From assembly GCA_050258455.1 (NCBI GenBank), contig JBLMYT010000114.1, positions 55,995 through 119,994 on the forward strand: a DNA stretch of 64,000 nt, given 5' to 3'. A program made the translations under genes and the position numbers. The notes below the pieces were generated by a model, which was given only the letters and a program-made list of their open reading frames with translations, was not told the DNA's origin and ran no database searches. Positions 17,009-39,709 of the stretch are shown in pieces. The stretch comes from Candidatus Omnitrophota bacterium (GTDB lineage: Bacteria; Acidobacteriota; Aminicenantia; UBA2199). The number at the start of each line of letters is the position of its first letter. The stretch's first letter is position 1.

Positions 17009-17055
17009 TGTCCTTGCCTGTTATGTGTTTTTACTTACTCTTTTATTCTTTCGGT

Positions 17056-19021: not shown

Positions 19022-19139
19022 AAAAACATCCTTCGACGTTAAGTTTTACAGCAAAACCAAAAAAATGTCAAATATTTTTAACTTTATATTTTATATTTTT
19101 CGATATTTTCTTCGCTATTTTTCGATTCGATAAGCGCCA

Positions 19140-19625: not shown

Positions 19626-19838
19626 TCTTCAAAATCTCCTTATGTTTTACTTCGGAATCCCACGCGACCCCACGTCCATCATCCGAAACTGAATTATATC
19701 ACCAATAGCATAAAAAAAAAATATGGCTTCCATTAAAACAAATAAAATTCGTTTACCAGAGAAGTTCTATTGATTTTTCATGAAATATGCGGTATCATTC
19801 TTTTACTCCTGATACGCCGTAACAACGTTTTTTAGACG

Positions 19839-24121: not shown

Positions 24122-27100
24122 ATGTACAGGAGTGGTCTATCCGATTTCGATCGGTTATGGATTGCTGCAGGAAAAAAGGCCAAAGAAAAACAATATTGGA
24201 CCGAAAAATTATCCGGAAAATTGTCAACCAGTCGTTTTCCATATTCTCATTTTCATAAAGACGTAATTACCGAAAACTTATATAGCCATTCGGTTTACCT
24301 CGGTTTTGATGAGCATATATCTTCGCAATTGGTAAAATGGAGTGCGAATTCCGATATCCGCCTTCACATTATATTAAGCGCCGTACTGACACTTTTACTC
24401 TCAAAATATACGGGTAATGAGGATATCATTATGGGTACGCCGGTTTCTCACGGAGGACACGGAGAAACAAATGAAGATGCGGCTGTTATCAATACGGTCT
24501 TGGCATTACGTCATCAACTGAATGGTGAAATGCCGTTCAAGGAATTGCTGTTCCAGGTCAGACAAACCATCATTGAAGCGGATGAAAACCAGAATTATCC
24601 GTTTGAAGTATTGGTCAGGCAATTGGAAACGCCGTTTTCAGAGGAGGGGTGTCCCCTTTTCGATGTCGCGGTGGTATTGGAAAACATTCAGAATAAAGAG
24701 CATCTTTCAGCAATTAATCCAAAAGTCATCTTTTCGTTTTTACGGATTGAAAAACATATTGAAGGCAAAATAATATATAACACGCATTTTTATCATCGGC
24801 AGATGATTGAACGCATTGCCCTTCATTTTGGGCATATTGTGGAAATCATATTATCCGATCCCAATAGGAAGATATCGGAGATCGAGGTCATCACCGAAAA
24901 TGAAAAGAGACAATTATTAAATGATTTTAACAATACGGCGGCGGAATATCCGAAAGATAAAACCATTCATGAATTATTTGAAGATCAGGCAGAGAAAACG
25001 CCGGATCATATAGCAGTTATAGGTTCAATTTCTGTGCGGGCGCTTCGCCAATTATCCCTACAAATTTCCTATCGACAACTGAATGAACGATCCGAACAAT
25101 TGGCGAATAAATTAATCCAAGAAAACGTTCAACCCGATATTATTGTGGGTATAAAGATCGGGCGCTCGGTTGAGATGATTATCGGAATTTTGGGAATATT
25201 AAAAGCAGGTGGCGCATATTTACCCATTGATCCGGATTACCCGCAGGAACGGATTGATTATATGGTAAAGGATAGTGGTGCGGCATTGTTGGTTACCACC
25301 AACCATGAAGAAGGTGAGAAGTTAAGAAGTTGGGAAGTTAAGAAAGTGCTCTTTTTAGATCCTCTTAATCTCTCAGCTTCTCAACCTCTTAACTTCTCTT
25401 TAAATTCCGTAGGGGCAGATCCGTGTATCTGCCCGAGTACTTCTCTATTACCGGTAATCGGTAACCGGCCACTGGCCACTTCTCTCGCTTATGTTATTTA
25501 TACCTCCGGTTCAACCGGAAGTCCCAAAGGAGTAATGGTCGAGCATCGAAACGTTATTCGTTTAGTGAAAAATACGAATTTCATTGATTTTCAACCCGAA
25601 GATCGATTATTACAAACCGGGGCATTGGCGTTTGATGCCTCCACGTTTGAAATATGGGGCGCGTTGTTAAATGGTCTTAGCCTTCATCTGATGGATAAAG
25701 AAGACGTATTGAACCCGGATAAATTAAAGAAGCGCATGATTGAGCATCAAATCACCATCATGTGGATGACATCCCCGTTCTTTAATCAGATGGTGCAAAG
25801 TAATGAAGAAATCTTTGGACCTCTTCGTTATTTATTGGTTGGGGGCGATGTCTTATCCCCGTCGCATATCGATCGGGTACGAAAGCGGTTTCCCGGTTTG
25901 AGGGTTGTTAATGGTTATGGGCCGACCGAGAATACGACTTTTTCCACCACGTTTTTGATCGATAAGGATGATGAGGAAAAGATTCCCATCGGTAAACCCA
26001 TTGCCAATTCAACCGCTTATGTTGTGGATAGACATGGAGCTCTGCAACCGGTCGGAATTGCCGGAGAATTGTGGGTTGGAGGGGACGGTGTATCCCGCGG
26101 GTATTTAAACAACCCGGAATTGACGGCCCAGAAATTTTCCTCTGTGCCCTCCGTGACCTCTGTGGCTAAAAATTTATACAAAACCGGGGACCTGTGCCAG
26201 TGGATGGAGGACGGCAATATCGAATTCTTGGGTCGCATCGATCAGCAGGTAAAGATCAGAGGATTTCGCATTGAATTGGAAGAAATCGAGCATCGATTAT
26301 TGAAGCATCCGGCCATTCAAGACGCTGTCATTGTTGTGAAACACGATAAATATAAAAACAAGTATCTCTGCGCTTATATTGTTTCAAAAGATCCCTGTGA
26401 TCCCGCCCAATTAAGAGAATACCTAATAAAATATTTACCGGATTACATGATCCCGTCCCATTTCGGGCTCATAGAGAAAATACCGCTAACTCCGAATGGT
26501 AAAGTCGACCGGAAAGCATTACCCGAAATAAAGGTGAAAACAGGCCCGGATTATGTTGGGGCCGGGGATACGATCGAAGAAAAATTGTCAGCCATATGGT
26601 CCGATGTTCTGGAAATCGAAAAAAACGCCATTGGGATTCATGACAATTTTTTCAATCTGGGTGGACATTCCTTAAAGGCCGTTCGATTAATTTCTGAAAT
26701 TCATAACCAACTAAGTGTCAAATTATCCCTAACGGAAATATTCGCCTTTCCAACGGTAAAGGATTTGGCCGGGTATATAAGGGGCGCGCGCAGAAATGAA
26801 TATGCAATGATCGAGACGGTGGAAGAAAGAGAATACTATGACGTGGCCCAGGCCCAGGAACGGTTATGGATATTGGATCAGGTCCAAACGGAACTGACCG
26901 CTTACAATATTCCCGGTTATGTGGTATTCGAAAATTTGAATCGCAACGCTCTTCAACAGGCATTCGAATCGTTAATAAAACGCCATGAAATTTTGAGGAC
27001 CACGTTTATCACCGTAAATGGGGAACTCAAACAAAAAGTGCATGATTTTAAAAATCATGATATCCGGATAAATTATCTCGATTTGAGAAGAGAAGAAAAA

Positions 27101-28213
27101 AGAGGAGCCATCGTTGAAAGCTTAAAAGAAAAAGAAATGAGTACACCGTTTAACCTGGAAAAAGGTCCCTTATTAAGGAGCACATTGCTCCATGTCGAAG
27201 ATCATCGGTATATATTTTTATATACCCTGCATCATATTATTTCGGATGGATGGTCGATGGATATCCTACAAACGGAATTTATGACCCTTTATCAAGCGTA
27301 TTGCAGCGGTCAAGAGAACCCCTTGCCACCCCTTCGGATTCAATACAAAGATTACACCTACTGGCAGATGAAGCAATTGGCCGGCGAAAACTTAAAAAAC
27401 CACGAAGATTATTGGTTGAACCGGTTTAATGGCGACCTACCGGTTCTGGAACTGCCCCTCGATTACCCTCGCTCGGAACTACGGTCATTTGCGGGCGAAT
27501 TTATCCTATTTTCGTTAAGTAAGGAAATGACCGGACACTTAAAACGGATGTGCAATGAATTGGGCACCACTCTGTTTATCATCTTGCTGGCAATGGTAAA
27601 GGTTTTCTTGTATCGATATACAGGCCAAACGGACATTATTGTTGGAACTCCGGTTGCCGGTAGAGACCATAAAGACCTGGAAAATCAAATCGGTTTTTAT
27701 GTAAACATGTTGGCATTAAGAAATCAACTAACCAAAGGTCAGAGTTTCAGAGACGTTTTGGAAATGGTTAAACGCAGTACCCTGGAAGCCTTTGAACACC
27801 AGGTCTATCCCTTTGACCGTCTGGTTCATGAGTTAAAGGCCGTAAAGGATCTGAGTCGTCATCCCTTGTTTGATGTGGTGGTAATTTTAAGAAACCCCAT
27901 GAACGCGCCGGAACAAGTAAACCTGAGGACATTGCCGGAAGCAAATAGAGACGACGAATGGGTTGAAAACGGAGTAGAGGCCAGTAAGTTTGATTTAGGC
28001 TTAGGCTTCACCGACCAGGGCGATCAAATCATTGCCCATTTCAGATACAATGCGCAATTATTTAAAAGAGAACGAATCATGCTTATACGGGAACGGTTTA
28101 TCGGGTTGATGACAGATATTGTTTCCCATCTGGATAAAGAAATAGATGACCTCATGTTTACGTCTGAAGCAGAGAAAGGAAAACCGAAAAACAAATTTAA
28201 AGGAGGATTTTAA
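24122..28213 (+). CDS. NRPS 1 (one module): orphan C-domain C-lobe, then A, PCP and a complete C domain
   Basis: The ATG at 24122 follows AAGGAG at 24108-24113. The A-domain cores present are A1 ISYRQLNERSEQLA, A2 LKAGGAYLPIDPDYP, A3 LAYVIYTSGSTGSPKGV, A5 NGYGPTE, A6 GELWVGGDGVSRGYL, A7 YKTGD, A8 GRIDQQVKIRGFRIELEEIE and A10 NGKVDRKALPE. The PCP motif is LGGHSLKAV. The C domain carries HHIISDGWS. The stop is 3 nt before NRPS 2. Confidence 0.9.
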   Translation: MYRSGLSDFDRLWIAAGKKAKEKQYWTEKLSGKLSTSRFPYSHFHKDVITENLYSHSVYLGFDEHISSQLVKWSANSDIRLHIILSAVLTLLLSKYTGNEDIIMGTPVSHGGHGETNEDAAVINTVLALRHQLNGEMPFKELLFQVRQTIIEADENQNYPFEVLVRQLETPFSEEGCPLFDVAVVLENIQNKEHLSAINPKVIFSFLRIEKHIEGKIIYNTHFYHRQMIERIALHFGHIVEIILSDPNRKISEIEVITENEKRQLLNDFNNTAAEYPKDKTIHELFEDQAEKTPDHIAVIGSISVRALRQLSLQISYRQLNERSEQLANKLIQENVQPDIIVGIKIGRSVEMIIGILGILKAGGAYLPIDPDYPQERIDYMVKDSGAALLVTTNHEEGEKLRSWEVKKVLFLDPLNLSASQPLNFSLNSVGADPCICPSTSLLPVIGNRPLATSLAYVIYTSGSTGSPKGVMVEHRNVIRLVKNTNFIDFQPEDRLLQTGALAFDASTFEIWGALLNGLSLHLMDKEDVLNPDKLKKRMIEHQITIMWMTSPFFNQMVQSNEEIFGPLRYLLVGGDVLSPSHIDRVRKRFPGLRVVNGYGPTENTTFSTTFLIDKDDEEKIPIGKPIANSTAYVVDRHGALQPVGIAGELWVGGDGVSRGYLNNPELTAQKFSSVPSVTSVAKNLYKTGDLCQWMEDGNIEFLGRIDQQVKIRGFRIELEEIEHRLLKHPAIQDAVIVVKHDKYKNKYLCAYIVSKDPCDPAQLREYLIKYLPDYMIPSHFGLIEKIPLTPNGKVDRKALPEIKVKTGPDYVGAGDTIEEKLSAIWSDVLEIEKNAIGIHDNFFNLGGHSLKAVRLISEIHNQLSVKLSLTEIFAFPTVKDLAGYIRGARRNEYAMIETVEEREYYDVAQAQERLWILDQVQTELTAYNIPGYVVFENLNRNALQQAFESLIKRHEILRTTFITVNGELKQKVHDFKNHDIRINYLDLRREEKRGAIVESLKEKEMSTPFNLEKGPLLRSTLLHVEDHRYIFLYTLHHIISDGWSMDILQTEFMTLYQAYCSGQENPLPPLRIQYKDYTYWQMKQLAGENLKNHEDYWLNRFNGDLPVLELPLDYPRSELRSFAGEFILFSLSKEMTGHLKRMCNELGTTLFIILLAMVKVFLYRYTGQTDIIVGTPVAGRDHKDLENQIGFYVNMLALRNQLTKGQSFRDVLEMVKRSTLEAFEHQVYPFDRLVHELKAVKDLSRHPLFDVVVILRNPMNAPEQVNLRTLPEANRDDEWVENGVEASKFDLGLGFTDQGDQIIAHFRYNAQLFKRERIMLIRERFIGLMTDIVSHLDKEIDDLMFTSEAEKGKPKNKFKGGF
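25321..25440. repeat. MITE/REP-like element embedded in frame in the NRPS-1 A-domain A2-A3 loop. The left end GTTAAGAAGTTGGGAAGTTAAGAAAG is identical to 36739-36764, and the internal palindrome GTAGGGGCAGATCCGTGTATCTGCCC is at 25409-25434.
   Basis: The left terminus is an identical 26-mer shared with the second copy. Imperfect terminal inverted repeats are present (GAAGTTAAGAA ... TCTTAACTTC). The encoded peptide, LRSWEVKKVLFLDPLNLSASQPLNFSLNSVGADPCICPSTSLL, is low-complexity and unlike canonical A-domain sequence. Confidence 0.55.
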
Positions 28214-28216: not shown

Positions 28217-31200
28217 ATGGCGGTCGACATCCACACCCTCGCTCTATACAACACATGTGAGGATTATTGGCTTAAAACACTGAATGGCGTAACGCTTACC
28301 CCTATTTTTGGGGATCAAAGTAATAACGGTATTAGCACCCGCGATTCATGGCGTGTGGCATTTCCTCCCGGCCTGTCAGATTCTATTCACTCCATGGTCC
28401 GGGGGGAAGATACCAATGCTTTTTTGATTTTTCTTACAGCGTTTAATATTTTAATATATAAATATACCCACGCGGATGATATATTAATCCATACCCCGGA
28501 TTTCCGGGATGAAGAATCTAAAAATTCCGAAGATGCAATGCTTTTCTTCCGTACCCATCCGGGTGAGGATCAAATCATTCGTGATTTATTAAACCAATTC
28601 CTTTCCGAATTAAACGGGGCCTATGAAAATCATCAATTCCTTTATGAATCATTGCTCAGACGTTTTAATGATAACCAAAATGGAGACGTTAACGCCTTAT
28701 CCGCTTTTGGTTTGCGGTATAACCGATTTAATCTGGAAAGCTTGCGGATGGAAGCAAGTCATTTGTTTTTTTCAATCGAGCAACGCGATCATGGCATCGA
28801 TCTTTTGATTCACTATCATACCTGTTCCTACACCTCGGATCAAATTGCTCAATTGGCACGGCATTATATCCATATCTTGGCCTCGATGGTGTCAAATTTG
28901 GACACCCCGCTTCATGCCATCGGTATATTTTCGCCGGAGGACAAACAAAAATTAATGGAGTTTATCGGAGAAGAAATCGAGGCCCCGGAGGAGGGGAAAA
29001 CATTTTTGGCCCGATTCGAACGCCAGGTTGAAGACTCGCCCCAATCTCCCGCCTTAGCCTGCGGGCCCGTGACATTGAGTTACCGGGCGTTAAATGAAAG
29101 GGCCAATCAACTGGCCCGACGATTACGTCACGAGGCTCCCCTCGCCAACGATGATTCCGTGGCCCTGGTGATGGACCGATCCCCAAAGATGGTGGAGAGC
29201 ATTCTGGCCGTATGGAAATGCGGGGCCGCTTATATCCCCATCGATCCGTCGTATCCCCAGGAGCGAATCGACACGATTATCAACGACTCCGGCGCCAAAT
29301 TGATGATTCGTGAAACGGGTAATATTTCATTTAAAGTGGAACAAACCCTGAAACCGGCAACCAGGGTCATTTACCTGGATCAAATCGAAAATGACCGCTT
29401 ACATGAGGATAAGACCAACCTTTGCGTTCCCCGACATCCCGGGGATCTGGCTTATATTATTTATACATCAGGCTCCACGGGTAAACCCAAAGGCGTCATG
29501 ATCGAACAGCGAGGCATGATGAATCATCTTCATGCCAAGATTTCGGAAATCCAAATCGATGCGACAAGCGTGATTGCTCAAAATGCCTCACACTGTTTCG
29601 ATATCTCCGTCTGGCAATTTTTCGCTGCCCTGTTGGTCGGCGGTAAAACAATTATTTATTCTGACCAGGCCGTGTTAAACCCCACGGCGTTTACCCGACA
29701 GTTGGCTGAGGATGGGGTTAATATATTGGAGGTCGTGCCATCCTATTTGTCAGTAATATTAGATCTAATCGAAGATCAGCAGACAGGCGATGCACTCGCC
29801 GGGTGTCGCTGCTTGTTGGTCACGGGCGAAAGCGTGAAGCCCGGCCTCGTGAACCGGTGGTTCAAAACATTTCCGGGTATACGAATGGTGAATGCTTATG
29901 GCCCCACCGAAGCATCCGACGACATCACCCATTTCGTGATGGACCGGTTCCCCGGGACCGGAAATATCCCAATCGGTAAAACGCTTCGTAACTTTCGTAT
30001 TTACATCGTAAATTCGCGTATGGAGCTATGTCCCGTCGGTGTGAAAGGTGAAATTCTCGTATCGGGACTCGGCGTCGGACGGGGGTATCTGAATGACATA
30101 AAAAAGACCACGGACGCCTTTATGGAAGATCCCTTTCGGCCGGAACGGGGTTTTCGGTTGTACAAAACCGGTGATATCGGACGCTATTTACCTGACGGCA
30201 ATATCGAATTTTTTGGCAGAAAAGATTACCAGGTGAAAGTCCGGGGTTATCGAATCGAGCTCGAAGAGATCGAGAATAAATTATCCCGCCTTGACGGAAT
30301 CCGGGATGCGGCAGTCGTTGAGAAAGACAGTAAAAATAAAGGCGACGGCATGTATTTGTGCGCTTATATCACGCTGCGCGATGGCGTCCGGACACGGACG
30401 GAAGAGATTAAAACCGAATTGGCCCGGACGCTTCCCCATTACATGATCCCGGCCTTTATTGTTGTGCTCGACGCCTTGCCATTGACCCCCAACGGCAAAT
30501 TGGACCGCAAGGCATTACCGGATCCGGATGAATCCGGAATCGGGGACGTCGCGTATGTGGCGCCCCGCAATGCCATTGAAATCAAGTTGGCGGAGATATG
30601 GCGACAGGTCATCGGAGTGGAGCAGATCGGCATTCACGATAACTTTTTTGCGTTGGGAGGAAATTCATTACTGGGAATTCGGATTGTGAACAAAATTCAG
30701 GAATGGTTGCACGAAACCGTTCATGTCACCATCCTCTTTTTGGCCCCGACGATTGAGCAGTTGGCGGTGAAACTGGAGAGTTACCGGCAGGAAAAAGAGA
30801 CCCGAATCAATGAGGCGGATATCGCGGAACTTCGGTCTCTCATGCCTCCCTTGCCCCCTCTGCCTTCCCATTTGGTTCGCCCGGGTAAAACCCCTCCGGT
30901 CCTGTTCATTTTGTGTCCGCCCCGGTCCGGTTCCACGTTGTTAAGGGTTATATTGGCCGGCCATCCCGGGTTATTTGCGCCACAGGAGTTGCAATTGCTG
31001 TCCTTCAATACGCTGACGGAGCGAAAAGCGGCCCTTTCCGGGACCTACAGCCTTTACCTGGAGGGAGTGATCCGGGCCATCATGGAGATGAAGGCGATTG
31101 GTGCGGACCAGGCCAAACAGATCATGGAAGCATTTGAAGCCCAGGGGATGACGGTGCAGGAGTTTTACGGCATCCTTCAGCATTGGCTGGGGGAAACGAT

Positions 31201-34200
31201 GCTGGTAGAGAAAACCCCGCAATATGCTTACGATATCAATGTCCTGCAACGGGCGGAAGCGTATTTTGATTCCGCCCTTTACATTCATCTGGTTCGAAAC
31301 CCCTATGCGGTGATTCATTCGTACGAAAACGCGCGGTTGGACCAATTGTTTGAATATCCCCACCGTTTTTCGACTCGGGAATTGGCCGAATTGTTGTGGG
31401 TCATTTGCAACCAGAATATCTTGCAGTTCCTGGAGACAATCCCTGCCGGACGGAAATACCGGATGGAGTATGAAGAATTGGTTGGAAACCCGGAATCGGT
31501 GGTATCCCGCATGTGCGAGCACTTCGGTTTGGAATTTGACCGGGGAATGCTGGATGTATATGATGATGCCGGCCACCGGATGACGGACGGTATCTATGCC
31601 GAATCAAAGATGCTCGGAGATGTCAAATTCTTCAGCCATACGTCCATTGACACGACGTCCGTGGAGAAGTGGAAGGAGAAATATACAACCGAATTTTTGG
31701 GACAAACCGCCGTGGATTTGGCGAAATATTTTGGGTATTTGAGGGGACGCCATGAATACCCGACGATTGAACCGGCACCTGAGAAAGAGTATTATGAATT
31801 ATCGCCAGCCCAAAGACGATTATGGTTATTGGACCGGCTGGTGGAGAACCAGATTGCCTATAACATGCCGGGGGCCTATTGGGTGGAAGGGAATTTACAC
31901 ATCGATGTATTGGAAAAATCGTATGCGGCAGCAATTAAGCGACATGAAATATTGAGAACCACGTTTGTATCCGTGGAAGGCCCCCCCCGGCAAAAAATTC
32001 ACGCTTTTGAAGCGATGGGGTACCGGTTGGATTATCTGGATCTAAGAACGGATCCGGGTCGGGAAGAAACGGCAGCGTATCTGATCCGGGAAGAAGCCGC
32101 CAAACCGTTCAATCTGGAACAGGGACCTTTAATCCGGACCCGGTTGATTCATATGGATGCCAATCGGTATATATTTTTATTTAACATGCATCACATTATT
32201 TCGGATGGGTGGTCGATGCATGGATTAATGAAGGAAATCATCGCATATTATGACGCCTATGCCACGAACAGTGCGGAGTCTCTTGAGCCGTTGCGATTGC
32301 AATATAAAGATTATTCGGAGTGGATGACTCGTGAATCCACGCAGCGGGTCCTTCAACAACAGGAAAAATATTGGCTCGACCAATTTGCAGAAGACATCCC
32401 GGTCTTAAGTTTACCCACCGATTACGCGCGACCGGCAATCATGAGTTTTGAAGGACATACTGTCAACTTTGATTTTACGGCCCAGGAAACAGGGGAATTG
32501 ACCAAAGTGGCCCGGTCCGAGGGAGTTACTTTATTTATTTTATTAATTTCCATTTTCAATGTATTTTTGTCTAAAGTCAGCGGTGAGGAGGATATAATTA
32601 TCGGAACGCCCGTTGCTGGCCGGAATCATCCGGATCTGGAACACATCCTTGGGATGTTTGTCAACACATTGGCGCTGCGCAACTATCCTCGGGGAGAAAT
32701 GACCTTTATCCGGTTTCTTCATCACCTGAAAACCCTGATGTTAGAGGCCTTTGAGAATCAGGATTACCCCTTTGAAACCCTGGTTGAAAAATTGGAAATA
32801 ACGCGCGACACGAGTCGTAATCCACTCTTCGACGTCATGTTTACCATTCAGGATATTTATGAATCGGACAGGGGCTTGAATCAATTCAGCGACCTGAAAA
32901 TAAAACCCTATGCCTTCGACCATCGAATATCCAAATTTGATTTGTTACTCGCCACATTTGAAACCGATGGAAGGGTCTGTTTTGTCTTTGAGTATTGTAC
33001 GGCGTTGTTCCGGGAGGGCACCATCCAAAGATTTATTCAGTACGTGAAAGCCATTGCCCGGTCGATTATTCAAGACCCTGCGATCCGAATATCCGATATG
33101 GAGATCATAACCCCGGAGGAAAAGCGACAAATTATTTCGGATTTTAATCGTACGCAAGCTGCTTATCCATCGGATAAAACGATCGAAATGTTGTTTGAAG
33201 ACCAGGTGAAAAAAACGCCTGATTGCATTGCGGTTATCGGTTCCACGGTATCGCTCCCCAAACCCGTAGAAACGTTGTGTACAGCGTTCCTTCACCTAAC
33301 GTATAAAGAATTGAATGAACGATCCGATCGATTGGCGTATGAATTAATACAAAAAGGCGTTGAGCCGGATGCCATTGTCGGCATAAAAATCGAACGTTCC
33401 ATTCAAATGATTATCGGGATTTTTGCCATTTTGAAAGCAGGTGGCGCTTATCTTCCCATCGATCCGGATTACCCCCAGGAACGCATCGAATACATGTTAA
33501 AGGATAGCCAGGCGCATTTATTGGTAACTCATTGTTTAGGGGCAGCCCCATGCATTGGCCCGGGTGTTATTAACCCGGAACTTCCCTCCGTACCCGCTGT
33601 GTCCGCCGTGAGAGAAAAATCAAATCTTGCCTATGTCATTTACACTTCCGGTTCAACGGGAATGCCCAAAGGGGTCGTGGTCAAAAGGGAAGGATTTTTA
33701 AATTTACTCTATTGGTACATCAACGAATTTAATATAAATCCAAACGATAACGTTTTACTCATTGCATCGGTGAGTTTTGATTTGGCGCAAAAAAACGTAT
33801 TTAGTTCTTTTATGGTCGGCGGATGTTTGACTTTAGCCTCCCCTGGGCTCCCGGATTATTCAACGCTCTCGAAGCTTATCCAAAAAGCGCCAATCACCCT
33901 GATCAATTGTGCGCCCAGTGTCTTTTATCCATTGGTAGAATTTAATCGGAATTCGGGTTTTACGGATTTAAACACATTGCGATGGGTCATTCTCGGTGGT
34001 GAACCGATTTTAATCGAAAAGCTTTTACCCTGGATGGATTCCGAATCGTATCGATGTCAGATTGCCAACACGTATGGGCCGACCGAATGCACAGACATTG
34101 CCTCTTGTTACCGCATTCCCAATGAAAAAATTCGGGATTTAAAATCAATACCCATCGGAAAACCCGTTTCCAATGTAGCGGTTTATATATTGGGTAAATA

Positions 34201-37200
34201 CCGGGAGATACTCCCGGTGGGTGTGGTCGGGGAATTGTATATCGGGGGGATCGGGGTATCCCAGGGGTATTATAACAACAGGCAATTAACGGAGGAGAAA
34301 TTTTTGGAATTATCCCATTTACCGGAATCGAAAATATACCGGACCGGGGATATGGGGCGATGGTTGGACGATGGAAATATTGAGTTTTTAGGGCGAGTCG
34401 ATGATCAGGTTAAAATAAATGGCATGAGAATCGAGCTGGGAGAAATCGAGCATGTATTGTTGAGTCATAACGAGATTAAGGATGCGGTTGTTATTGTCCA
34501 TAAAAAAGAAAAGACGGATTACTATTTATGTGCCTACATCATTTCGCATAAGAATTTATCGATAGCAGATATACAGGAATATTTATCGTATCGTTTACCT
34601 CAATATATGATACCAACCCACTTTATTCAGCTCGAGCACATACCGTTAACACCCAGTGGAAAAGTAGATAAACGGTCTTTGCCTGATCCTGAAATGGGGT
34701 CTACACGGTCGTACATTGCGCCCGAAAATGCAGTGGAAAAAGAAATGGTGAAAATTTGGGCAGAAGTTCTGGGAATGGCAAAAGATCGAATCAGTATGGA
34801 TGATAATTTTTTCCAATTGGGGGGACATTCTATAAAAGCATCGTTATTGGTATCCCAAATTCGTAAAGCATTTGATGTGAATATTTCACTATCGGATATA
34901 TTCCGGATTTCCACGGTTCGGGGATTATCTCATCAAATTAAAGGATCGGTTAAGGAAAAATACCTTTCGATACCCCCTGCTGAGAAGAAAGAATACTATG
35001 AGTTATCTTCGGCACAAAGGCGCTTATACATTTTACACCAGATGGATGAAAAGGGGATCAATTACAATATTTCGTCTGTGTTTCTATTGGAAGGGGAGAT
35101 TGATAAAGATAGATTTGAGGGGACGTTTAGGCAGCTTATCGATCGGCATGAGAGTTTGCGAACATCATTTCCGATGGTCGGTAATGAACCGATGCAGCGA
35201 ATTCATGATGATGTTGAATTTGAAATTAATTATTTAGCCACAGAGTTCACAGGGGACACAGAGGGGGAAGGGAAGAAGGTAAGTGGAATAGAGAATTTTA
35301 TTAAATTTTTCGATTTATCTAAAGCGCCATTGATGCGTGTGGAATTGATGAGAGTCGACGATAACACGCATCTTCTTGCAGTGGGCATGCATCATATTAT
35401 TTCGGATGGAACTTCCATGAATATTGTGGTGCAAGATTTCATGGCGTTTTATAAGGGTGAAGAATTGCCGGAAGTACAAATTCAGTATAGGGATTTTTCA
35501 GAGTGGCAGAAACGGGAAAATCAAAAAGAATTGCGAAAGCAGCAAGAGGCGTTCTGGTTAAACGAATTTGAAGGGGAAATACCGGTATTGGATCTTCCGG
35601 CGGATTTTTTAAGGCCTTCGATTCAGAGTTTTGAAGGAAGACGGGTCCAATTTGAACTGGATAAAGAAACCACCGGATTATTGAAAGCGTTGGCGTTGGA
35701 GACTGGTGCCACTTTATATATGATGCTTTTGGCTTTATACAACGTGTTTTTATCTAAAATCTGTAATCAGGAGGATATTGTTATCGGTTCGCCGATTGCG
35801 GGGAGAAGTCATTCTGATTTAGAGAAAGTTGTCGGAATGTTTGTCAATACATTGGCCTTACGGAATTATCCGATAGGAGAAAAAGTATTTACTGATTTTT
35901 TGGAGGAAGTAAAAGGAAACATCTTAAGAGATTTTGAAAATCAGGAATATCCTTATGAAGAATTGGTGGAACGGGTGTTGGTAAACAGGGACACCGGTCG
36001 GAATCCGTTATTTGACACCATGTTTGTGTTACAGAATGCGGATATGCAATCGTTGGCGATTCCCGGACTGGTATTAACTCCTTATGAATATGAGAATCAC
36101 GTATCCAAGTTTGATTTGACATTATCCGCAATAGAAAAAGAAGATCGTTTATGTTTTACATTTGAATACAGCACGAAGCTATTTAAGCGTGAAACGATTG
36201 AGCGATTCATTTCATATTTTAAGAACATCGTTAACGGTGTTATTGAGAATAGAGCTCGAACCCTTTCGAATTTTGAGATTATTACGGAAGAAGAGAAGAA
36301 TCATCTGTTATATGATTTTAATCATACAGAGGTCGAATATACGAAAGATAAGACCATTCAACAATTATTTGAAGAGCGGGCATGCCGGGGATGGGATAGG
36401 ATTGCATTGGTCGGCGCTATTTCCGGTATAGGGGCAGCCTCAGGTGTCTGCCCTCAATTATCTTACGCTGAATTGAATGAACGATCGAATCGATTCGCCT
36501 ATGAGTTAATCCAAAAAGGCGTTGGACCCGATGTGATTGTGGGGATAAAAATCGAACGGTCTATTGAAATGATCATCGGTATTCTGGGAGTTTTGAAAGC
36601 CGGCGGCGCGTATTTACCGATTGACCCCGGTTTGCCGCAGGAACGGGTCGATTATATGTTAAATGATAGTAGAGCTAAATTTATTTTTCTCACGGAGCAC
36701 ACAGGGGACACGGGGGGGAGTGGTGTAGAAGTTGAGACGTTAAGAAGTTGGGAAGTTAAGAAAGCGGTCTTTTTAGATCCTTTTAACCTCTCAGTTTGTC
36801 CAGCGGGCGCACACACGGGTGCGCCCCTACGTAATTCCGAATCAATTTCCCTTTTAGATCAACTTAACCTCTCATCTTCTCAACCTCTTAACTTCTTCCC
36901 TTCCTCCGTGCCCCCCGTGTCCTCCGTGAGAAATCATTCAAATCTTGCTTATATCATTTACACATCCGGTTCCACCGGGAAACCTAAAGGCGTATTCATT
37001 CGCCATTCGAATATCTGTCCGTTGCTGCATTGGGGATACGAGCATTTGGCGTTGACGAGCGATGACCGTTCGGTTCAGAATTTATCCTATTATTTCGATT
37101 GGTCCGTATGGGAGATATTTATTGCATTAACGTCCGGGGCCGGTCTTCACATGGTATCCAATGAACTGATCATGGATGGGGTGAGTTATGCCGATTACAT

Positions 37201-39709
37201 GAACCGTTATGGAATTACAGTATTGCATATTACGCCCACGCATTTTCAGGCGCTCATTTTTTCGGGGAAGCGTTTACCGTCATTGCGTCATTTGTGTTTT
37301 GGCGCCGAAAAGCTTGCCCATGATTTGGTGGAGAAGAGCATTGAGGTTATCGAACCTCAATGCCGAATCTATAACATGTATGGTCCCACCGAAGCCACGA
37401 TTATGGCAGCGGTATTAACGATCGATCGGTCCAGGTTACCGTTTTACAGTCAGTTGTCCGGTGTTCCGATCGGAGAAAATCTGGGAAATAATGTCCTTTT
37501 CATATTGGACAGAAGTTTTAACTTGTGTCCGATCCATATCTTTGGCGAATTATACATCGGCGGTGACGGCGTTTCACCGGGATACTTAAACAACCCCGAA
37601 TTAACAGTTAAACGGTTTATCTCCGTGACCTCCGTGCGCTCCGTGAGAGACAAATTATATAAAACCGGGGATTTATGTCGATGGTTGGATGATGGAACCA
37701 TTGAGTTTTTGCATCGCATGGATGAGCAGGTTAAGATCAGGGGATTTCGCATTGAGTTGGGGGAGATTGAAAGTCGTTTATTAACGTGTGATCACATCAA
37801 AGAAGCCGTCGTCATTGTGAGAGAAAAGACGAGCGGCGACAAATATCTGGCTGCGTATGTGGTTTCGGATATTGAACTTTCGGAATCCGAATTAAACGAT
37901 TATTTATTAAAGACATTACCGGACTATATGGTCCCTTCTTCTTTTACGCAATTGGAAAAAATTCCGTTAAATCCCAATGGAAAATTGGACCGCAAAGCAT
38001 TACCTGAACCAGAGTGGAAAGGGGAGACCGGTTATGCGGCCCCGCAAAATGCTACGCAAGTCAAACTGGTAGAGATATGGTCCGATATCTTAAATGTCGA
38101 AGAAAATTCTATTGGCATAGACACCAATTTCTTTCAATTGGGAGGGCATTCATTGAAAGCAGTCCTCTTGCTTTCCAAAATCCATCAAGCGTTGAGTGTC
38201 AAACTCCCATTTATTCAACTCTTTAAAACCCCAACCATCAGAGAATTGTCCTCATATATAAAAGGGATGACGAAAGCGAAGGCGGAAGTCATTGAACCGG
38301 TGGAACAAAAAGAATATTACCGGCTGTCATCGGCTCAGAAACGGATTTTCTTCATGCAGCAATTGGATCCGGCCAGTACCACCTATAATATCCCGCAGGC
38401 CAATCTCATTCGCGGGCAATTGGACCTGGTCTTATTGGACTCCACCTTTTACCGTTTGTTGCAACGCCATGAGAGTTTGAGAACGTCGTTTGAGATGATC
38501 CATGAAGAACCGGCGCAACGCATTCATCCCGACGTGAGATTTAATATTGAATATTCTACCGGTAAACCCGGGCTTGGGAGCCCGGGTACCGGAGAACCGG
38601 TTGAGGATTTCACCCCTTACCTCGAAGGTTTTGTCAAACCCTTTGATTTGAGCCAAGCGCCCTTAATCCGGGTTAAAGTGGTCGAAATCGAGCGATTCAC
38701 GCATATCCTGCTGATCGATGTCCATCATATCGTCACCGATGGGGTATCCAATGGGATACTACTCAGGGATTTCGATTTTCTGTATCGGAATAAAGGCGCA
38801 GAATTACCGGAGTTACGGATCCAGTACAAAGAATATGCCGAATGGCAAGGCCGCAAGGATCAAAGACAAAGGTTAACGCAGCAGGAAAATTACTGGTTGC
38901 ATCAATTGGGGCACGGTATTCCGGTTCTTGATATTCCGACCGATTATCCCCGGCCGACCCCCCGAAGTCTAAAAGGCGATGCGATCCGGTGGGATATCGA
39001 TGAAACTTTGTCTGCCCGTATTCGGGCGTTCGTAAGCGATGTCGGTTGCACGTTAAATATTTTCTTCCTGGCTGTCCATCAGGTGCTATTGGCAAAATAT
39101 TCGAACCAAGAAGATATTATTGTCGGAACCGTATCCGCTGGCCGGCGACATGCCGATTTGGAACATACCGTTGGAATGTTTATCAACATGTTGGCTATCC
39201 GCAACCAGCCGTATAAAGAGAAAGTATTTAAAGACTTTTTGTTGGAAGTCAAACAACGGTCGATCGATGCGTATGAAAACCAGGATTACCAATTCGATGA
39301 CCTGGTCTTAAAATTGGGATTACAAAGGGCTCAGGACCGCACCCCCATATTTGAGACGGTATTTGTGGTTCAGAATCTTGAAATGGGGCACTCCCTTAAA
39401 CAGGACGGTCTCACCGCATCAGAGGAAATCAGTGTGTTGGAAATTCCCAGGAGCCAGTTGGAAAGCCAATACTATGATTTGATCTTTCAAGCCGAGGAAA
39501 GGCCGGACGTCATCAAAATGGTGCTGCTGTATGCCACGGCCCTATTCAAACGCTCCACTGCCGAATGGATCCAAAAACACTTTATGGACATTTTGGCCCA
39601 GGTGGTCAAACAACCGGATTTAAAATTAATGGATATTGAGATCACCCAACAATTTTTGAAAGCCGATTCCAACGTGATTAAAGATCAGCCATCGGATTTT
39701 CGATTTTAG
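28217..39709 (+). CDS. NRPS 2 (three modules): orphan C-lobe, then A-PCP-sulfotransferase, C-A-PCP, C-A-PCP and a final C
   Basis: There are three complete A domains, with A3 cores LAYIIYTSGSTGKPKGV, LAYVIYTSGSTGMPKGV and LAYIIYTSGSTGKPKGVF. The three PCPs are LGGNSLLG, LGGHSIKAS and LGGHSLKAV. The three C domains carry HHIISDGWS, HHIISDGTS and HHIVTDGVS. An embedded sulfotransferase domain has a 5'-PSB-like motif CPPRSGSTLL and a 3'-PB-like motif RNPYAVIHS. The RBS AGGAGGA lies inside the end of NRPS 1. The protein is 3830 aa. Confidence 0.9.
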   Translation: MAVDIHTLALYNTCEDYWLKTLNGVTLTPIFGDQSNNGISTRDSWRVAFPPGLSDSIHSMVRGEDTNAFLIFLTAFNILIYKYTHADDILIHTPDFRDEESKNSEDAMLFFRTHPGEDQIIRDLLNQFLSELNGAYENHQFLYESLLRRFNDNQNGDVNALSAFGLRYNRFNLESLRMEASHLFFSIEQRDHGIDLLIHYHTCSYTSDQIAQLARHYIHILASMVSNLDTPLHAIGIFSPEDKQKLMEFIGEEIEAPEEGKTFLARFERQVEDSPQSPALACGPVTLSYRALNERANQLARRLRHEAPLANDDSVALVMDRSPKMVESILAVWKCGAAYIPIDPSYPQERIDTIINDSGAKLMIRETGNISFKVEQTLKPATRVIYLDQIENDRLHEDKTNLCVPRHPGDLAYIIYTSGSTGKPKGVMIEQRGMMNHLHAKISEIQIDATSVIAQNASHCFDISVWQFFAALLVGGKTIIYSDQAVLNPTAFTRQLAEDGVNILEVVPSYLSVILDLIEDQQTGDALAGCRCLLVTGESVKPGLVNRWFKTFPGIRMVNAYGPTEASDDITHFVMDRFPGTGNIPIGKTLRNFRIYIVNSRMELCPVGVKGEILVSGLGVGRGYLNDIKKTTDAFMEDPFRPERGFRLYKTGDIGRYLPDGNIEFFGRKDYQVKVRGYRIELEEIENKLSRLDGIRDAAVVEKDSKNKGDGMYLCAYITLRDGVRTRTEEIKTELARTLPHYMIPAFIVVLDALPLTPNGKLDRKALPDPDESGIGDVAYVAPRNAIEIKLAEIWRQVIGVEQIGIHDNFFALGGNSLLGIRIVNKIQEWLHETVHVTILFLAPTIEQLAVKLESYRQEKETRINEADIAELRSLMPPLPPLPSHLVRPGKTPPVLFILCPPRSGSTLLRVILAGHPGLFAPQELQLLSFNTLTERKAALSGTYSLYLEGVIRAIMEMKAIGADQAKQIMEAFEAQGMTVQEFYGILQHWLGETMLVEKTPQYAYDINVLQRAEAYFDSALYIHLVRNPYAVIHSYENARLDQLFEYPHRFSTRELAELLWVICNQNILQFLETIPAGRKYRMEYEELVGNPESVVSRMCEHFGLEFDRGMLDVYDDAGHRMTDGIYAESKMLGDVKFFSHTSIDTTSVEKWKEKYTTEFLGQTAVDLAKYFGYLRGRHEYPTIEPAPEKEYYELSPAQRRLWLLDRLVENQIAYNMPGAYWVEGNLHIDVLEKSYAAAIKRHEILRTTFVSVEGPPRQKIHAFEAMGYRLDYLDLRTDPGREETAAYLIREEAAKPFNLEQGPLIRTRLIHMDANRYIFLFNMHHIISDGWSMHGLMKEIIAYYDAYATNSAESLEPLRLQYKDYSEWMTRESTQRVLQQQEKYWLDQFAEDIPVLSLPTDYARPAIMSFEGHTVNFDFTAQETGELTKVARSEGVTLFILLISIFNVFLSKVSGEEDIIIGTPVAGRNHPDLEHILGMFVNTLALRNYPRGEMTFIRFLHHLKTLMLEAFENQDYPFETLVEKLEITRDTSRNPLFDVMFTIQDIYESDRGLNQFSDLKIKPYAFDHRISKFDLLLATFETDGRVCFVFEYCTALFREGTIQRFIQYVKAIARSIIQDPAIRISDMEIITPEEKRQIISDFNRTQAAYPSDKTIEMLFEDQVKKTPDCIAVIGSTVSLPKPVETLCTAFLHLTYKELNERSDRLAYELIQKGVEPDAIVGIKIERSIQMIIGIFAILKAGGAYLPIDPDYPQERIEYMLKDSQAHLLVTHCLGAAPCIGPGVINPELPSVPAVSAVREKSNLAYVIYTSGSTGMPKGVVVKREGFLNLLYWYINEFNINPNDNVLLIASVSFDLAQKNVFSSFMVGGCLTLASPGLPDYSTLSKLIQKAPITLINCAPSVFYPLVEFNRNSGFTDLNTLRWVILGGEPILIEKLLPWMDSESYRCQIANTYGPTECTDIASCYRIPNEKIRDLKSIPIGKPVSNVAVYILGKYREILPVGVVGELYIGGIGVSQGYYNNRQLTEEKFLELSHLPESKIYRTGDMGRWLDDGNIEFLGRVDDQVKINGMRIELGEIEHVLLSHNEIKDAVVIVHKKEKTDYYLCAYIISHKNLSIADIQEYLSYRLPQYMIPTHFIQLEHIPLTPSGKVDKRSLPDPEMGSTRSYIAPENAVEKEMVKIWAEVLGMAKDRISMDDNFFQLGGHSIKASLLVSQIRKAFDVNISLSDIFRISTVRGLSHQIKGSVKEKYLSIPPAEKKEYYELSSAQRRLYILHQMDEKGINYNISSVFLLEGEIDKDRFEGTFRQLIDRHESLRTSFPMVGNEPMQRIHDDVEFEINYLATEFTGDTEGEGKKVSGIENFIKFFDLSKAPLMRVELMRVDDNTHLLAVGMHHIISDGTSMNIVVQDFMAFYKGEELPEVQIQYRDFSEWQKRENQKELRKQQEAFWLNEFEGEIPVLDLPADFLRPSIQSFEGRRVQFELDKETTGLLKALALETGATLYMMLLALYNVFLSKICNQEDIVIGSPIAGRSHSDLEKVVGMFVNTLALRNYPIGEKVFTDFLEEVKGNILRDFENQEYPYEELVERVLVNRDTGRNPLFDTMFVLQNADMQSLAIPGLVLTPYEYENHVSKFDLTLSAIEKEDRLCFTFEYSTKLFKRETIERFISYFKNIVNGVIENRARTLSNFEIITEEEKNHLLYDFNHTEVEYTKDKTIQQLFEERACRGWDRIALVGAISGIGAASGVCPQLSYAELNERSNRFAYELIQKGVGPDVIVGIKIERSIEMIIGILGVLKAGGAYLPIDPGLPQERVDYMLNDSRAKFIFLTEHTGDTGGSGVEVETLRSWEVKKAVFLDPFNLSVCPAGAHTGAPLRNSESISLLDQLNLSSSQPLNFFPSSVPPVSSVRNHSNLAYIIYTSGSTGKPKGVFIRHSNICPLLHWGYEHLALTSDDRSVQNLSYYFDWSVWEIFIALTSGAGLHMVSNELIMDGVSYADYMNRYGITVLHITPTHFQALIFSGKRLPSLRHLCFGAEKLAHDLVEKSIEVIEPQCRIYNMYGPTEATIMAAVLTIDRSRLPFYSQLSGVPIGENLGNNVLFILDRSFNLCPIHIFGELYIGGDGVSPGYLNNPELTVKRFISVTSVRSVRDKLYKTGDLCRWLDDGTIEFLHRMDEQVKIRGFRIELGEIESRLLTCDHIKEAVVIVREKTSGDKYLAAYVVSDIELSESELNDYLLKTLPDYMVPSSFTQLEKIPLNPNGKLDRKALPEPEWKGETGYAAPQNATQVKLVEIWSDILNVEENSIGIDTNFFQLGGHSLKAVLLLSKIHQALSVKLPFIQLFKTPTIRELSSYIKGMTKAKAEVIEPVEQKEYYRLSSAQKRIFFMQQLDPASTTYNIPQANLIRGQLDLVLLDSTFYRLLQRHESLRTSFEMIHEEPAQRIHPDVRFNIEYSTGKPGLGSPGTGEPVEDFTPYLEGFVKPFDLSQAPLIRVKVVEIERFTHILLIDVHHIVTDGVSNGILLRDFDFLYRNKGAELPELRIQYKEYAEWQGRKDQRQRLTQQENYWLHQLGHGIPVLDIPTDYPRPTPRSLKGDAIRWDIDETLSARIRAFVSDVGCTLNIFFLAVHQVLLAKYSNQEDIIVGTVSAGRRHADLEHTVGMFINMLAIRNQPYKEKVFKDFLLEVKQRSIDAYENQDYQFDDLVLKLGLQRAQDRTPIFETVFVVQNLEMGHSLKQDGLTASEEISVLEIPRSQLESQYYDLIFQAEERPDVIKMVLLYATALFKRSTAEWIQKHFMDILAQVVKQPDLKLMDIEITQQFLKADSNVIKDQPSDFRF
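36739..36950. repeat. Second, longer copy of the MITE/REP-like element, in frame in the A2-A3 loop of NRPS-2 module 3. It contains the palindrome GGGCGCACACACGGGTGCGCCCCTAC at 36805-36830 and a duplicated TTTTAGATC..CTTAACCTCTCA segment.
   Basis: The 26-mer at 36739-36764 is identical to 25321-25346, and the 28-mer at 36804-36831 is identical to intergenic 9861-9888. A repeated segment (CTTTTTAGATCCTTTTAACCTCTCAG ... CCTTTTAGATCAACTTAACCTCTCAT) flanks the palindrome and resembles a target duplication. Translation stays in frame as VCPAGAHTGAPLRNSES. Confidence 0.55.

Follow-up and report, generated by a model that had tools for sequence, protein, structure and literature searches.

Organization of the NRPS Locus

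The window analysed, which is the whole 64,000-nucleotide stretch of DNA, contains three NRPS genes and a gene for a free-standing radical SAM enzyme, all located on the plus strand. NRPS1 (24122..28213, +) has the domain order half-C – A – T – C, in which half-C denotes an isolated C-terminal lobe (C-lobe) of a condensation domain at the protein N-terminus, referred to here as the head. NRPS2 (28217..39709, +) is organized as half-C – A – T – sulfotransferase – C – A – T – C – A – T – C. The B12-binding radical SAM enzyme (rSAM; 39745..41433, +; PF04055 and PF02310) is encoded between NRPS2 and NRPS3. NRPS3 (41458..48195, +) displays the order half-C – A – T – TE, and its A domain is interrupted by a radical SAM/B12 insert and a ThiF-like insert. 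NRPS1 and NRPS2 each end in a complete C domain, as had been predicted. The terminal C domain of NRPS1 (26810..28147, +) comprises an N-lobe with the motif HHIISDG and a C-lobe (Pfam profile positions 3–452, 383 bits), and that of NRPS2 (38270..39631, +) carries HHIVTDG (positions 2–452, 365 bits).

The original prediction was that each of the three NRPS proteins starts with the C-terminal lobe of a C domain only. This is confirmed by half-matches to PF00668 and by alignment. The PF00668 scan matched aa 39–286 of NRPS1 (TTG numbering) to profile positions 191–456 (127 bits), aa 11–246 of NRPS2 to positions 191–455 (57 bits) and aa 15–259 of NRPS3 to positions 187–456 (117 bits). The peptides quoted in the prediction are found in the sequence, and the proposed ranges (24122–24900, 28217–28970 and 41458–42290) cover the right regions with limits that turned out slightly shorter. 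The NRPS1 head comprises aa 1–252 (24122..24877, +; Pfam and our own lobe HMM, covering 1–249), the degenerate NRPS2 head aa 12–233 (28250..28915, +; Pfam 191–455) and the NRPS3 head aa 1–245 (41458..42192, +; Pfam and lobe HMM, covering 1–249). In the alignment against the four full C domains of the cluster, all three heads start at the C4-motif region, and nothing was found in them opposite the motifs C1–C3, HHxxxDG included. The HHxxxDG motif is present in all four full C domains and in none of the three heads. A six-frame HMM search of the whole window at maximum sensitivity revealed four N-lobes versus seven C-lobes, and no N-lobe remnant upstream of the NRPS1, NRPS2 or NRPS3 starts. The respective ATG codons are preceded by the Shine-Dalgarno sequences AAGGAG, AGGAGG and GAGGAG, and the three start codons are genuine. 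The heads are thus not divergent full C domains, as they have neither N-lobe nor catalytic motif, and for the same reason they fall outside the catalytic condensation domains (PF00668, LCL-type). The cluster encodes five A domains and four full C domains, which already gives a colinear assembly line without the half-Cs. Therefore the heads are supernumerary as well as non-catalytic, as had been proposed.

The heads fall into the class of orphan C-lobes represented by C* of ACV synthetase and the ADA domain of Lys2-type reductases. Each has a lone C-lobe fold at the protein N-terminus with the N-lobe absent, and sequence matches in the PDB place the head on the C-lobes of TycC, Txo1 and LgrA. 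The A domain follows directly through a C-A-type linker and begins about 35 aa past the lobe. In NRPS1 this linker (24878..24976, +; ..ISEIEVITENEKRQLLNDFNNTAAEYPKDK..) was delimited by alignment with internal C-A linkers, and the A-domain HMM match begins at aa 286. The ADA region of Lys2 is matched by all three heads. Each head is a C*/ADA-type C-terminal lobe that stands alone, lacks catalytic function and is permanently fused to the A domain at the start of the polypeptide. The orphan half-C is a domain type already described, which the original prediction had not recognised, since its closest relatives are C* and ADA, both of which are needed for adenylation. No dedicated NCBIfam model for the head was found.

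Conservation of the Orphan Heads

The orphan heads form a subfamily of their own. The nearest neighbour was another orphan for 62 of 66 orphan heads and an internal lobe for each of the 684 internal lobes. The mean identity is 35% among orphans versus 24% between orphans and internal lobes, and at the former value the orphans are as well conserved as functional C-lobes. The orphan consensus reads AAxQxxKEKxYWLxKLSGE..FPYD..GSDxRLHMIL..KYTGNxDII.G.PIYKQ..TFKELLLQVRQT..ENQNYP.E..FPLFD..LLENIH. The subfamily is shorter by about 6 aa before C5 and by about 17 aa after C7, and the segments at the floor-loop and latch positions, which normally contact the N-lobe, are missing. The head boundary is uniform in more than 100 representatives from several phyla and is the same in about 100 full-length homologues with a Met start. 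Many of the orphan heads occur in half-C-A-T proteins of about 900 aa. Many database homologues are partial metagenome gene calls, and P0034 and P0038, counted as orphans in the survey, resemble truncated internal lobes.

The NRPS1 head is a canonical member of the subfamily and shares 81% identity with the head of P0001 over the match columns. The NRPS3 head carries a Tyr signature (..YPVEGIFYDL..) typical of heads encoded after a free rSAM gene. In the NRPS2 head the C5–C7-like motifs are eroded and the KEKxYW..KLSGE start is absent; it shares 21% identity with other orphans and 17–22% with internal lobes, and its best local matches are all N-terminal orphan heads. A recent tandem duplication of the adjoining C-lobe was considered as the source of the NRPS2 head and rejected, the head being only 19% identical to the terminal C-lobe of NRPS1. 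The internal n-c-c-A units of P0139 were considered as a fusion of the two partners proposed below, and were set aside because P0139 is one protein and its head belongs to another type.

Predicted Role in Support of the Adenylation Domain

A single-sequence AlphaFold model of aa 1–280 (pLDDT 35) was discarded in favour of an AF2 model of NRPS1 aa 1–700, which was built with an alignment of orphan-type proteins only (pLDDT 86.8, pTM 0.85). This model places the half-C against the A core, in the arrangement known from solved C-A didomains. The model superposes as one body on the C-A didomain crystal structures of Txo1 (TM 0.83), McyB (0.81), LgrA (0.83) and SrfA-C (0.79), versus a TM of about 0.5 with A-only structures. 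The predicted interface is not independent evidence, because AlphaFold was trained on C-A didomain structures. The three heads match positions 33–222 of the Lys2 model TIGR03443, corresponding to the ADA region, with E-values of 8e-14, 2e-8 and 1e-9; the whole-protein scores lie far under the family cut-off and the sequence relationship is distant.

Experiments on homologous domains point in the same direction. Removal of C* from ACV synthetase abolishes substrate use by module 1, and adenylation is lost in NPS3 without ADA (PMC7884236). The C-lobe by itself alters the activity and selectivity of the A domain. The exchange unit of XUC engineering is C_Asub-A-T-C_Dsub (Bozhueyuek et al. 2019). 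C_Asub-A-T constructs of GxpS are also known, and in one engineered GxpS case, which speaks against the explanation proposed below, the addition of a bare C-lobe lowered A-domain activity. The predicted structure supports an A-domain-supporting role of the heads in this cluster. According to sequence and prediction, a head that lacks the N-lobe, HHxxxDG and the floor-loop and latch segments would pack on the A core like the C-lobe of a normal C-A didomain. Its basic function would then be to maintain the fold, activity and selectivity of the A domain, as the experiments on homologous domains suggest.

An Aromatic Tail Shared by C-Ending Subunits and rSAM Enzymes

NRPS2 ends in an acidic-aromatic tail of typical appearance (..DQPSDFRF-COOH; 39632..39706, +), and the free rSAM enzyme ends in ..QENAAFRF-COOH (41407–41430), so that the FRF ending is common to both. 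The basic, atypical tail of NRPS1 (..SEAEKGKPKNKFKGGF-COOH; 28148..28210, +), which ends in ..KFKGGF, does not follow the tail motif, defined as (D/E)(D/E)G-D-(F/W)-x-F-COOH. The GG codons of this tail overlap the AGGAGG ribosome-binding site of NRPS2. A constraint imposed by ribosome-binding sites was considered as the cause of the tails in general and was discarded. Only the GG of NRPS1 overlaps a Shine-Dalgarno sequence, the NRPS2 and rSAM tails are separate from the next one, and Phe codons are not purine-rich.

The distribution of the tail was surveyed in 79 metagenome loci, which were fetched with the half-C as bait. The motif is present in 68 of 93 ORFs ending in a full C domain and in 29 of 35 rSAM ORFs, versus 0/31 T-ending, 0/4 TE-ending and 11/210 other ORFs. 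As in docking pairs, a conserved C-terminal peptide is thus limited to the C-ending and rSAM proteins, as against none of the 35 T- or TE-ending ones. A database search recovered the tail at the end of 112 of 120 homologues of the free B12-radical-SAM enzyme.

The tail-bearing genes adjoin half-C-headed genes directly upstream. The upstream neighbour of the 89 orphan-headed ORFs is a tail-bearing C-ending ORF in 31 cases and a tail-bearing rSAM gene in 28 (59/89 in total), while 11 have no upstream gene, as is the case for NRPS1, and four follow a T- or TE-ending protein; these neighbourhood counts are biased because the half-C served as bait, and only four loci chosen through rSAM offset the bias. 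In all four of these loci, which were picked via rSAM alone and belong to other phyla, the triad C-tail | rSAM-tail | half-C-A is found. C-ending ORFs carry the tail in 52 of 65 cases when a half-C or rSAM gene follows, versus one of seven before an A-start or full-C-start gene (p = 0.001). Of the 31 loci of at least 15 kb, 12 have half-C heads but no rSAM gene.

The tails of one cluster co-vary. Within triads, residue −2 of the two tails is identical in 8 of 22 cases (shuffle p = 0.002), and the rare W-type and I/L-ending variants appear in both tails of one cluster; duplication of the junction DNA at insertion of the rSAM gene may account for part of this co-variation. The common Tyr signature of heads after a free rSAM gene is significant and linked to rSAM. 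No residue co-variation between tail and head survives multiple testing, with only three W-type tails in the set. A literature search turned up neither the tail motif nor A domains interrupted by rSAM, which is a weak negative as most subscription journals lie outside its coverage. What seems to be new is the putative partner of the half-C, i.e., the shared tail.

Proposed Docking Role of the Heads

We propose that the heads are A-domain partners of the C*/ADA type and, in addition, likely receptors for the tail of the upstream subunit and of the free rSAM enzyme. We assign this explanation as a whole a probability of roughly 0.55. According to comparative genomics, the head probably binds the tail peptide borne by the free B12-radical-SAM enzyme and by the upstream subunit with its terminal full C domain, in the lineage covered here (Omnitrophota, Aminicenantes, Acidobacteriota and some Bacillota and Bacteroidota). 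Docking would keep the upstream C domain beside the downstream A-T pair and so permit peptide bond formation where C and A are split between two genes. A second effect would be delivery of the rSAM enzyme to the amino acid carried by this module, and the free rSAM would do in trans what the rSAM insert in the NRPS3 A domain does in cis. At the present locus, the NRPS3 head would receive two tails, that of NRPS2 (..DFRF) and that of rSAM (..AFRF), and the atypical NRPS1 tail may be matched to the atypical NRPS2 head. The NRPS1 head may be an A-domain cap only or a second rSAM site.

More tentatively, and with somewhat less than even confidence, the orphan half-C can be regarded as the receptor of an undescribed NRPS docking system occurring in several mostly uncultured phyla. 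The tail peptide would insert into the surface vacated by the N-lobe, and one code would serve both the joining of subunits at C|A splits and the recruitment of B12-radical-SAM enzymes to carrier-bound amino acids, as a peptide-based counterpart of the recruitment of P450s by X-domains. In every triad the tails of the upstream C domain and of rSAM would compete for one head. The putative receptor could also be the A or T domain of the downstream subunit, or the tails may bind something else. The original prediction had suggested docking or recruitment of the trans-acting rSAM enzyme. This idea gains indirect support from the genetics, because tail-bearing genes lie next to the heads and the tails co-vary within clusters, and the tail common to the rSAM and C-ending proteins is consistent with it. 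Recruitment of rSAM is not the only role, because half-C heads are also found in rSAM-less loci and at the start of assembly lines, as in NRPS1.

A rather unlikely alternative, though the strongest of those considered, is that the heads are pure A-domain caps with a structural, activating function of the C*/ADA type, and that the shared tail either serves some unrelated purpose or binds elsewhere, on a T domain, an A domain or a third protein. The AF2 model with its fit on C-A didomains, the ADA match, the deletion experiments on ACVS C* and ADA, the heads without a tail-bearing neighbour and the rSAM-less loci are all compatible with such caps. However, they leave unexplained why tail genes lie directly upstream of half-C-headed genes, why the tail is mostly absent when an A-start or full-C-start gene follows a C-ending ORF, and why the heads after rSAM genes form a subclass with a signature. 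The heads could instead be functionless evolutionary scars, left by module recombination or gene splitting at the inter-lobe hinge as the natural equivalent of the engineered XUC breakpoint. They do begin exactly at the inter-lobe hinge/C4 region where XUC fusions are made, and the NRPS2 head is strongly eroded, as its 57-bit match shows. A neutral relic would, however, be expected to decay or vanish, whereas the orphans are as conserved among themselves as functional C-lobes, possess invariant motifs of their own and have precise loop deletions and a uniform boundary in common across phyla. This makes such an origin improbable.

Synthetic NRPSs can be divided between the lobes (XUC and type S concepts), and natural heads might by analogy be split C-domain halves that obtain an N-lobe in trans from another protein to give an active C domain. 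We consider this very improbable, as no orphan N-lobe exists in the six frames of the window, the upstream C domains are complete, the line of five A and four full C domains is already colinear, and the orphans lack the very segments that contact an N-lobe. Finally, wrong starts, frameshifts or truncated gene calls could mimic orphan heads, and the partial gene calls among the database homologues and the appearance of P0034 and P0038 are what such artefacts would produce. The strong ribosome-binding sites at all three starts, the lack of an in-frame N-lobe upstream, the recovery of the same cluster in an independent assembly and the identical boundary in the full-length, Met-starting homologues reduce the chance of an annotation or assembly artefact to almost nil.

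Orphan C-lobes before A domains are usually dismissed in cluster annotation as "truncated, probably inactive C*," and their recognition as a conserved subfamily provides a rule for reading half-C-A architectures. If the pairing of tail and half-C is true, it would offer a compact, portable docking pair for NRPS splits at C|A, a junction poorly handled by current engineering, and a means of attaching tailoring enzymes, for example B12-radical-SAM C-methyltransferases, to a module of choice. The tail motif could then also be used as a bioinformatic handle for subunit order and for the target module of trans-acting rSAM enzymes in clusters of uncultured Omnitrophota, Aminicenantes and Acidobacteriota. 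If the pairing is false, what remains is a set of additional members of a class already known, C*/ADA.

Comparison With Known Systems

ADA is the adenylation-activating domain of fungal Lys2-type alpha-aminoadipate reductases such as NPS3 and Lys2 (Kalb et al. 2015, as cited in PMC7884236). Like the heads, it is N-terminal, spans about 200–250 aa directly before the A domain and has been modelled as an isolated C-lobe without HHxxxDG, and it is required for adenylation. Unlike the heads, ADA is part of a primary-metabolism reductase with just one module; it has no partner protein upstream, and a docking role is not known for it. C* was described in module 1 of ACV synthetase (Iacovelli et al. 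2021, PMC7884236), and the same annotation, with the wording quoted above, was given to ThdA (PMC7253712) and FmqA (PMC10212144). It is likewise a lone C-lobe that forms the N-terminal part of an initiation module, without N-lobe and catalytic motif and with C6/C7 partly kept, and its deletion inactivates the module. In all three proteins C* has been described only in the first module of the assembly line, whereas the heads are present on every subunit, even after a protein with a complete terminal C domain. The heads also differ from C* in keeping C5–C7-like motifs and in forming a well-defined subfamily linked to the tail motif. The XUC units resemble the heads in their boundary, which is the inter-lobe hinge, and in the notion that C-lobe plus A domain act as one functional unit. 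XUC units are, however, completed to a working C domain by the N-lobe of the neighbouring unit, whereas natural heads are never completed.

The X-domain, a catalytically dead member of the C superfamily, offers trans-acting tailoring enzymes a platform for their work on carrier-bound substrates. Haslinger and co-workers reportedly found in 2015 that the X-domain of glycopeptide NRPSs recruits the P450 Oxy enzymes. The half-C gave a weak alignment with the C-lobe half of the X-domain of Tcp12 (4tx2, E 9e-7). The X-domain differs from the heads in having both lobes and in lying between the T and TE domains of the last module, and its contact with P450s involves a protein-protein surface instead of a C-terminal peptide. 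The heads have a single lobe at an N-terminal site, and in NRPS3 the T domain is followed directly by TE. The comparison with X-domains made in the original prediction is therefore one of functional analogy and not of membership.

In the COM/docking domains of multi-subunit NRPSs, a tail after a T or E domain docks on the N-terminus of a C domain. The proposed pair of tail and head resembles them in that a short C-terminal peptide would be matched to an N-terminal element of the next subunit, and cluster-specific variation could set the order of the subunits. Classical docking pairs bridge T|C or E|C junctions, whereas tail and head would meet at a C|A junction, with a half-C as presumed receptor and a tail that a tailoring enzyme carries as well. 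Related loci contain both junction types side by side.

Domain organization of the cluster

Each of the three NRPS genes of the cluster opens with the C-terminal lobe of a condensation (C) domain, referred to here as the head or half-C. NRPS1 (24122–28213, + strand) encodes half-C, A, T and C domains, and NRPS2 (28217–39709, +) encodes half-C, A, T, sulfotransferase, C, A, T, C, A, T and C. NRPS3 (41458–48195, +) comprises half-C, an A domain with a radical SAM/B12 insert and a ThiF-like insert, T and TE. A free B12-binding radical SAM (rSAM) gene is located at 39745–41433 (+); its product is 100% identical to an NCBI-listed protein from a Candidatus Omnitrophota MAG. The Pfam match of all three N-termini is confined to the second half of PF00668, covering profile positions 191–456 in NRPS1 (127 bits), 191–455 in NRPS2 (57 bits) and 187–456 in NRPS3 (117 bits). 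In an alignment that includes the cluster's four complete C domains, the heads start at the C4 motif region, retain C5-, C6- and C7-like motifs and have no counterpart of C1–C3, including HHxxxDG. Separate HMMs were built for the N-lobe and the C-lobe, and the window was searched in six frames at maximum sensitivity. Exactly four N-lobes and seven C-lobes were found in the whole window, and no N-lobe relic was detected upstream of the three starts. A good Shine-Dalgarno sequence precedes all three ATG codons; that of NRPS2 sits within the last codons of NRPS1. These results confirm the original prediction that the heads are C-lobes lacking the N-lobe and the catalytic motif. Its view that NRPS1 and NRPS2 end in a complete C domain is borne out by Pfam, and the half-Cs are indeed supernumerary, since five A and four full C domains already form a colinear pentapeptide line without them.

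Relation to known isolated C-lobes

All three heads resemble the Lys2 model TIGR03443 (NCBIfam) at positions 33–222, corresponding to the adenylation-activating (ADA) domain. Like the heads, the C* region at the N-terminus of ACV synthetase is an isolated C-lobe without N-lobe or HHxxxDG (Iacovelli et al., PMC7884236). When C* is deleted, the module 1 substrate is no longer used, while modules 2 and 3 still work (PMC7884236); the same paper reports that NPS3 without ADA loses adenylation activity. Truncated C* heads have also been drawn for the thermoactinoamide synthetase ThdA (PMC7253712) and for FmqA (PMC10212144). In microcystin and GxpS module experiments, the C-lobe alone changes the activity and selectivity of the A domain. 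Because C* and ADA have been described and tested elsewhere, neither the domain type nor its basic function of capping the A domain is new. The original prediction recognized the heads as non-catalytic half domains and missed their tie to this class.

The structure of residues 1–700 of NRPS1 was predicted with AlphaFold, using an alignment of orphan-headed proteins only (pLDDT 86.8, pTM 0.85). Foldseek superposes the model on C-A didomains of the PDB as one unit, with query-normalised TM-scores of 0.83 for both Txo1 (6oyf) and LgrA, 0.81 for McyB C1A1 (8hlk) and 0.79 for SrfA-C; A-only structures score about 0.5. The model thus predicts that the head packs where the C-lobe sits in a canonical C-A platform. 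Since AlphaFold was trained on C-A structures, the model is supportive and not independent. The assignment of the heads as C*/ADA-type caps, which keep the N-terminal A domain in a normal C-A platform, is well supported.

A family of orphan C-lobes

A phmmer search with residues 1–280 of NRPS1 against 1.84 billion representatives yielded 53,647 C-domain proteins, and the best 150 were annotated with the lobe HMMs. Among these 150, 66 open with an orphan C-lobe at an identical boundary, and in most of the 66 the last domain is a full C, a T or a TE. The nearest neighbour is another orphan for 62/66 orphan lobes and an internal lobe for 684/684 internal lobes; mean identity is 35% between orphans and 24% between orphan and internal lobes. 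The orphan consensus contains (I/V)AAxQxxKEKxYWLxKLSGE..FPYD, GSDxRLHMIL, KYTGNxDIIxGxPIYKQ, TFKELLLQVRQT, ENQNYPxE, FPLFD and LLENIH, which are absent from internal lobes. Orphan lobes have a median length of 236 aa, versus 262 for internal lobes, being shorter by ~6 residues just before C5 and by ~17 just after C7. By position, these deletions appear to coincide with the latch and the floor loop, the two parts of a C-lobe that extend across to its N-lobe (PMC11546977).

By these four measures, orphan lobes are a group apart, and the heads represent a domain family. That they are functionless recombination scars is unlikely, because the orphan heads are conserved. Still more improbable is that the heads are halves of split C domains that another protein completes in trans; two findings contradict this, namely that there is no orphan N-lobe and that the heads have lost the loops at the positions of the latch and floor loop. 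An artefact is excluded; the gene order recurs in an independent Logan assembly.

The NRPS2 head, a degenerate family member, shares 21% identity with other orphans, yet its best matches are all N-terminal orphans. Its origin as a copy of the terminal C-lobe of NRPS1 was ruled out (19% identity). The surveyed protein P0139 (5423 aa) contains internal units in which no more than about 16 residues separate a complete C domain from a supernumerary C-lobe, with A after it; extra C-lobes are therefore not confined to protein N-termini. In the related locus L002, the ORF at 15673–20793 follows a T-ending protein and opens with a C-lobe of the internal, not the orphan, type (..LHTDYPRS..), which may mean that a normal C domain was truly split or truncated, or that the assembly is wrong here.

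A C-terminal tail shared with radical SAM enzymes

Proteins whose last domain is a full C extend ~25 residues beyond it, and this extension closes with an acidic stretch followed by F-x-F at the extreme C-terminus. In 79 metagenome loci retrieved with the orphan-head alignment as bait and then annotated, this tail was present in 68/93 unique ORFs ending in full C and 29/35 rSAM homologues, and in 0/31 ORFs ending in T, 0/4 ending in TE and 11/210 others (Fisher p = 1.6e-15 and 7.7e-44). Used as a database query, the window rSAM protein, which ends in ..ENAAFRF, gave 120 homologues (48–100% identity), 112 of them ending in (D/E)(D/E)G-D-(F/W)-x-F-COOH. The NRPS2 tail, ..DQPSDFRF, is typical. 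We found no description of a tail common to C-ending subunits and rSAM enzymes in the literature searched, and it seems to be undescribed there.

The ORF directly upstream of an orphan head is usually a full-C-ending synthetase or a homologue of the window rSAM, both with the same tail. For 89 evaluable heads, the upstream neighbour was a tailed C-ending ORF in 31 cases, a tailed rSAM in 28, a C-ending or rSAM ORF not matching the strict motif in 14, no NRPS or rSAM ORF in 11, a T- or TE-ending ORF in 4 and a tailed single C-lobe in 1. C-ending ORFs have the tail in 52/65 cases before a half-C or rSAM, versus 1/7 before an A-start or full-C-start (p = 0.001). As the half-C bait biases this sample, four loci picked via rSAM homologues (Herbinix, other Bacillota, Cytophagales and a JGI contig) were examined, and the triad of C-tail, rSAM-tail and half-C-A genes was found in 4/4. 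Within triads, the two unrelated tailed proteins carry matching variants: the -2 residue is identical in 8/22 (shuffle p = 0.002), and three rare Trp-type tails and one Ile-ending pair occur on both partners of their clusters. The window pair is DFRF (NRPS2) and AFRF (rSAM). Similarity within triads might come partly from duplicated junction DNA. A Tyr after the C6-like motif is common to heads behind a free rSAM gene; 22/24 Tyr-bearing heads follow rSAM (p = 5e-8, a statistic that ignores relatedness), and this Tyr is present in the NRPS3 head and absent from that of NRPS1.

Putative role of the heads

The suggestion that the heads serve in docking or recruitment is partly supported: the shared tail, gene adjacency and tail co-variation argue for it. 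The half-C itself is already known as a C*/ADA cap. A role as A-domain cap and nothing more is plausible, if on the doubtful side. The reading with the best support combines two layers: the cap and, as comparative genomics suggests, a putative landing site for the aromatic tail. This candidate site would allow the head to hold on to the upstream C domain where a gene split separates C from A, and to bring the B12-rSAM enzyme to the amino acid that the head's own module carries. The two tails of each triad would compete for one head, and their receptor could also lie elsewhere in the downstream subunit. The NRPS1 tail (..KFKGGF) is atypical and basic and faces the atypical NRPS2 head, a single case that fits a pairing code. 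The NRPS1 head lacks a partner upstream. Docking and recruitment can be tested directly by way of the conserved tail that C-ending subunits have in common with rSAM enzymes.

T/C junctions in related loci use other, helical acidic tails and full-C heads, so two junction types coexist, which could enforce subunit order. Both are mixed within the clusters L008/L013 (JABAOF010000279.1), L009, L090 and L091, where T-ending proteins carry helical acidic tails (e.g. ..LMQQTLRKLDEED) followed by full-C heads, and C-ending proteins carry aromatic tails followed by half-C heads. In L008, three consecutive genes have nearly identical half-C heads, two of them behind T-ending proteins with no full C between.

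Other features of the cluster

Two interruptions split the only A domain of NRPS3, at 42595–44290 and about 45622–46302 (aa about 380–943 and 1389–1615). The first interruption, between N-terminal A motifs, is the radical SAM and B12-binding insert; the second is a ThiF/E1-like domain, after which an additional A-like fragment (aa 1701–1783) precedes the end of the A domain. The same architecture occurs in L004, L009 and a JGI contig, and the literature searched yielded no account of it. An rSAM insert within the A domain of a half-C-headed module, the fused alternative, is found in many metagenome loci. Directly 3′ of NRPS3, a metallo-beta-lactamase-fold gene and a homocysteine-S-methyltransferase-like gene occupy 48245–50241 (+); the rSAM enzymes might depend on the product of the latter for methyl or cobalamin chemistry. 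The Sulfotransfer_3 domain of NRPS2 (30897–31540, aa 894–1108) lies between the first T and the next C, and the related PKS/NRPS locus L008 likewise has a sulfotransferase. A near-identical Ser/Pro-rich insert (..LRSWEVKK.VFLDP.NLS...SQPLNF..) separates A core motifs in NRPS1 (about 25370–25460, aa 417–447) and in the third NRPS2 module (aa about 2890–2960), with a pLDDT below 50 in the model.
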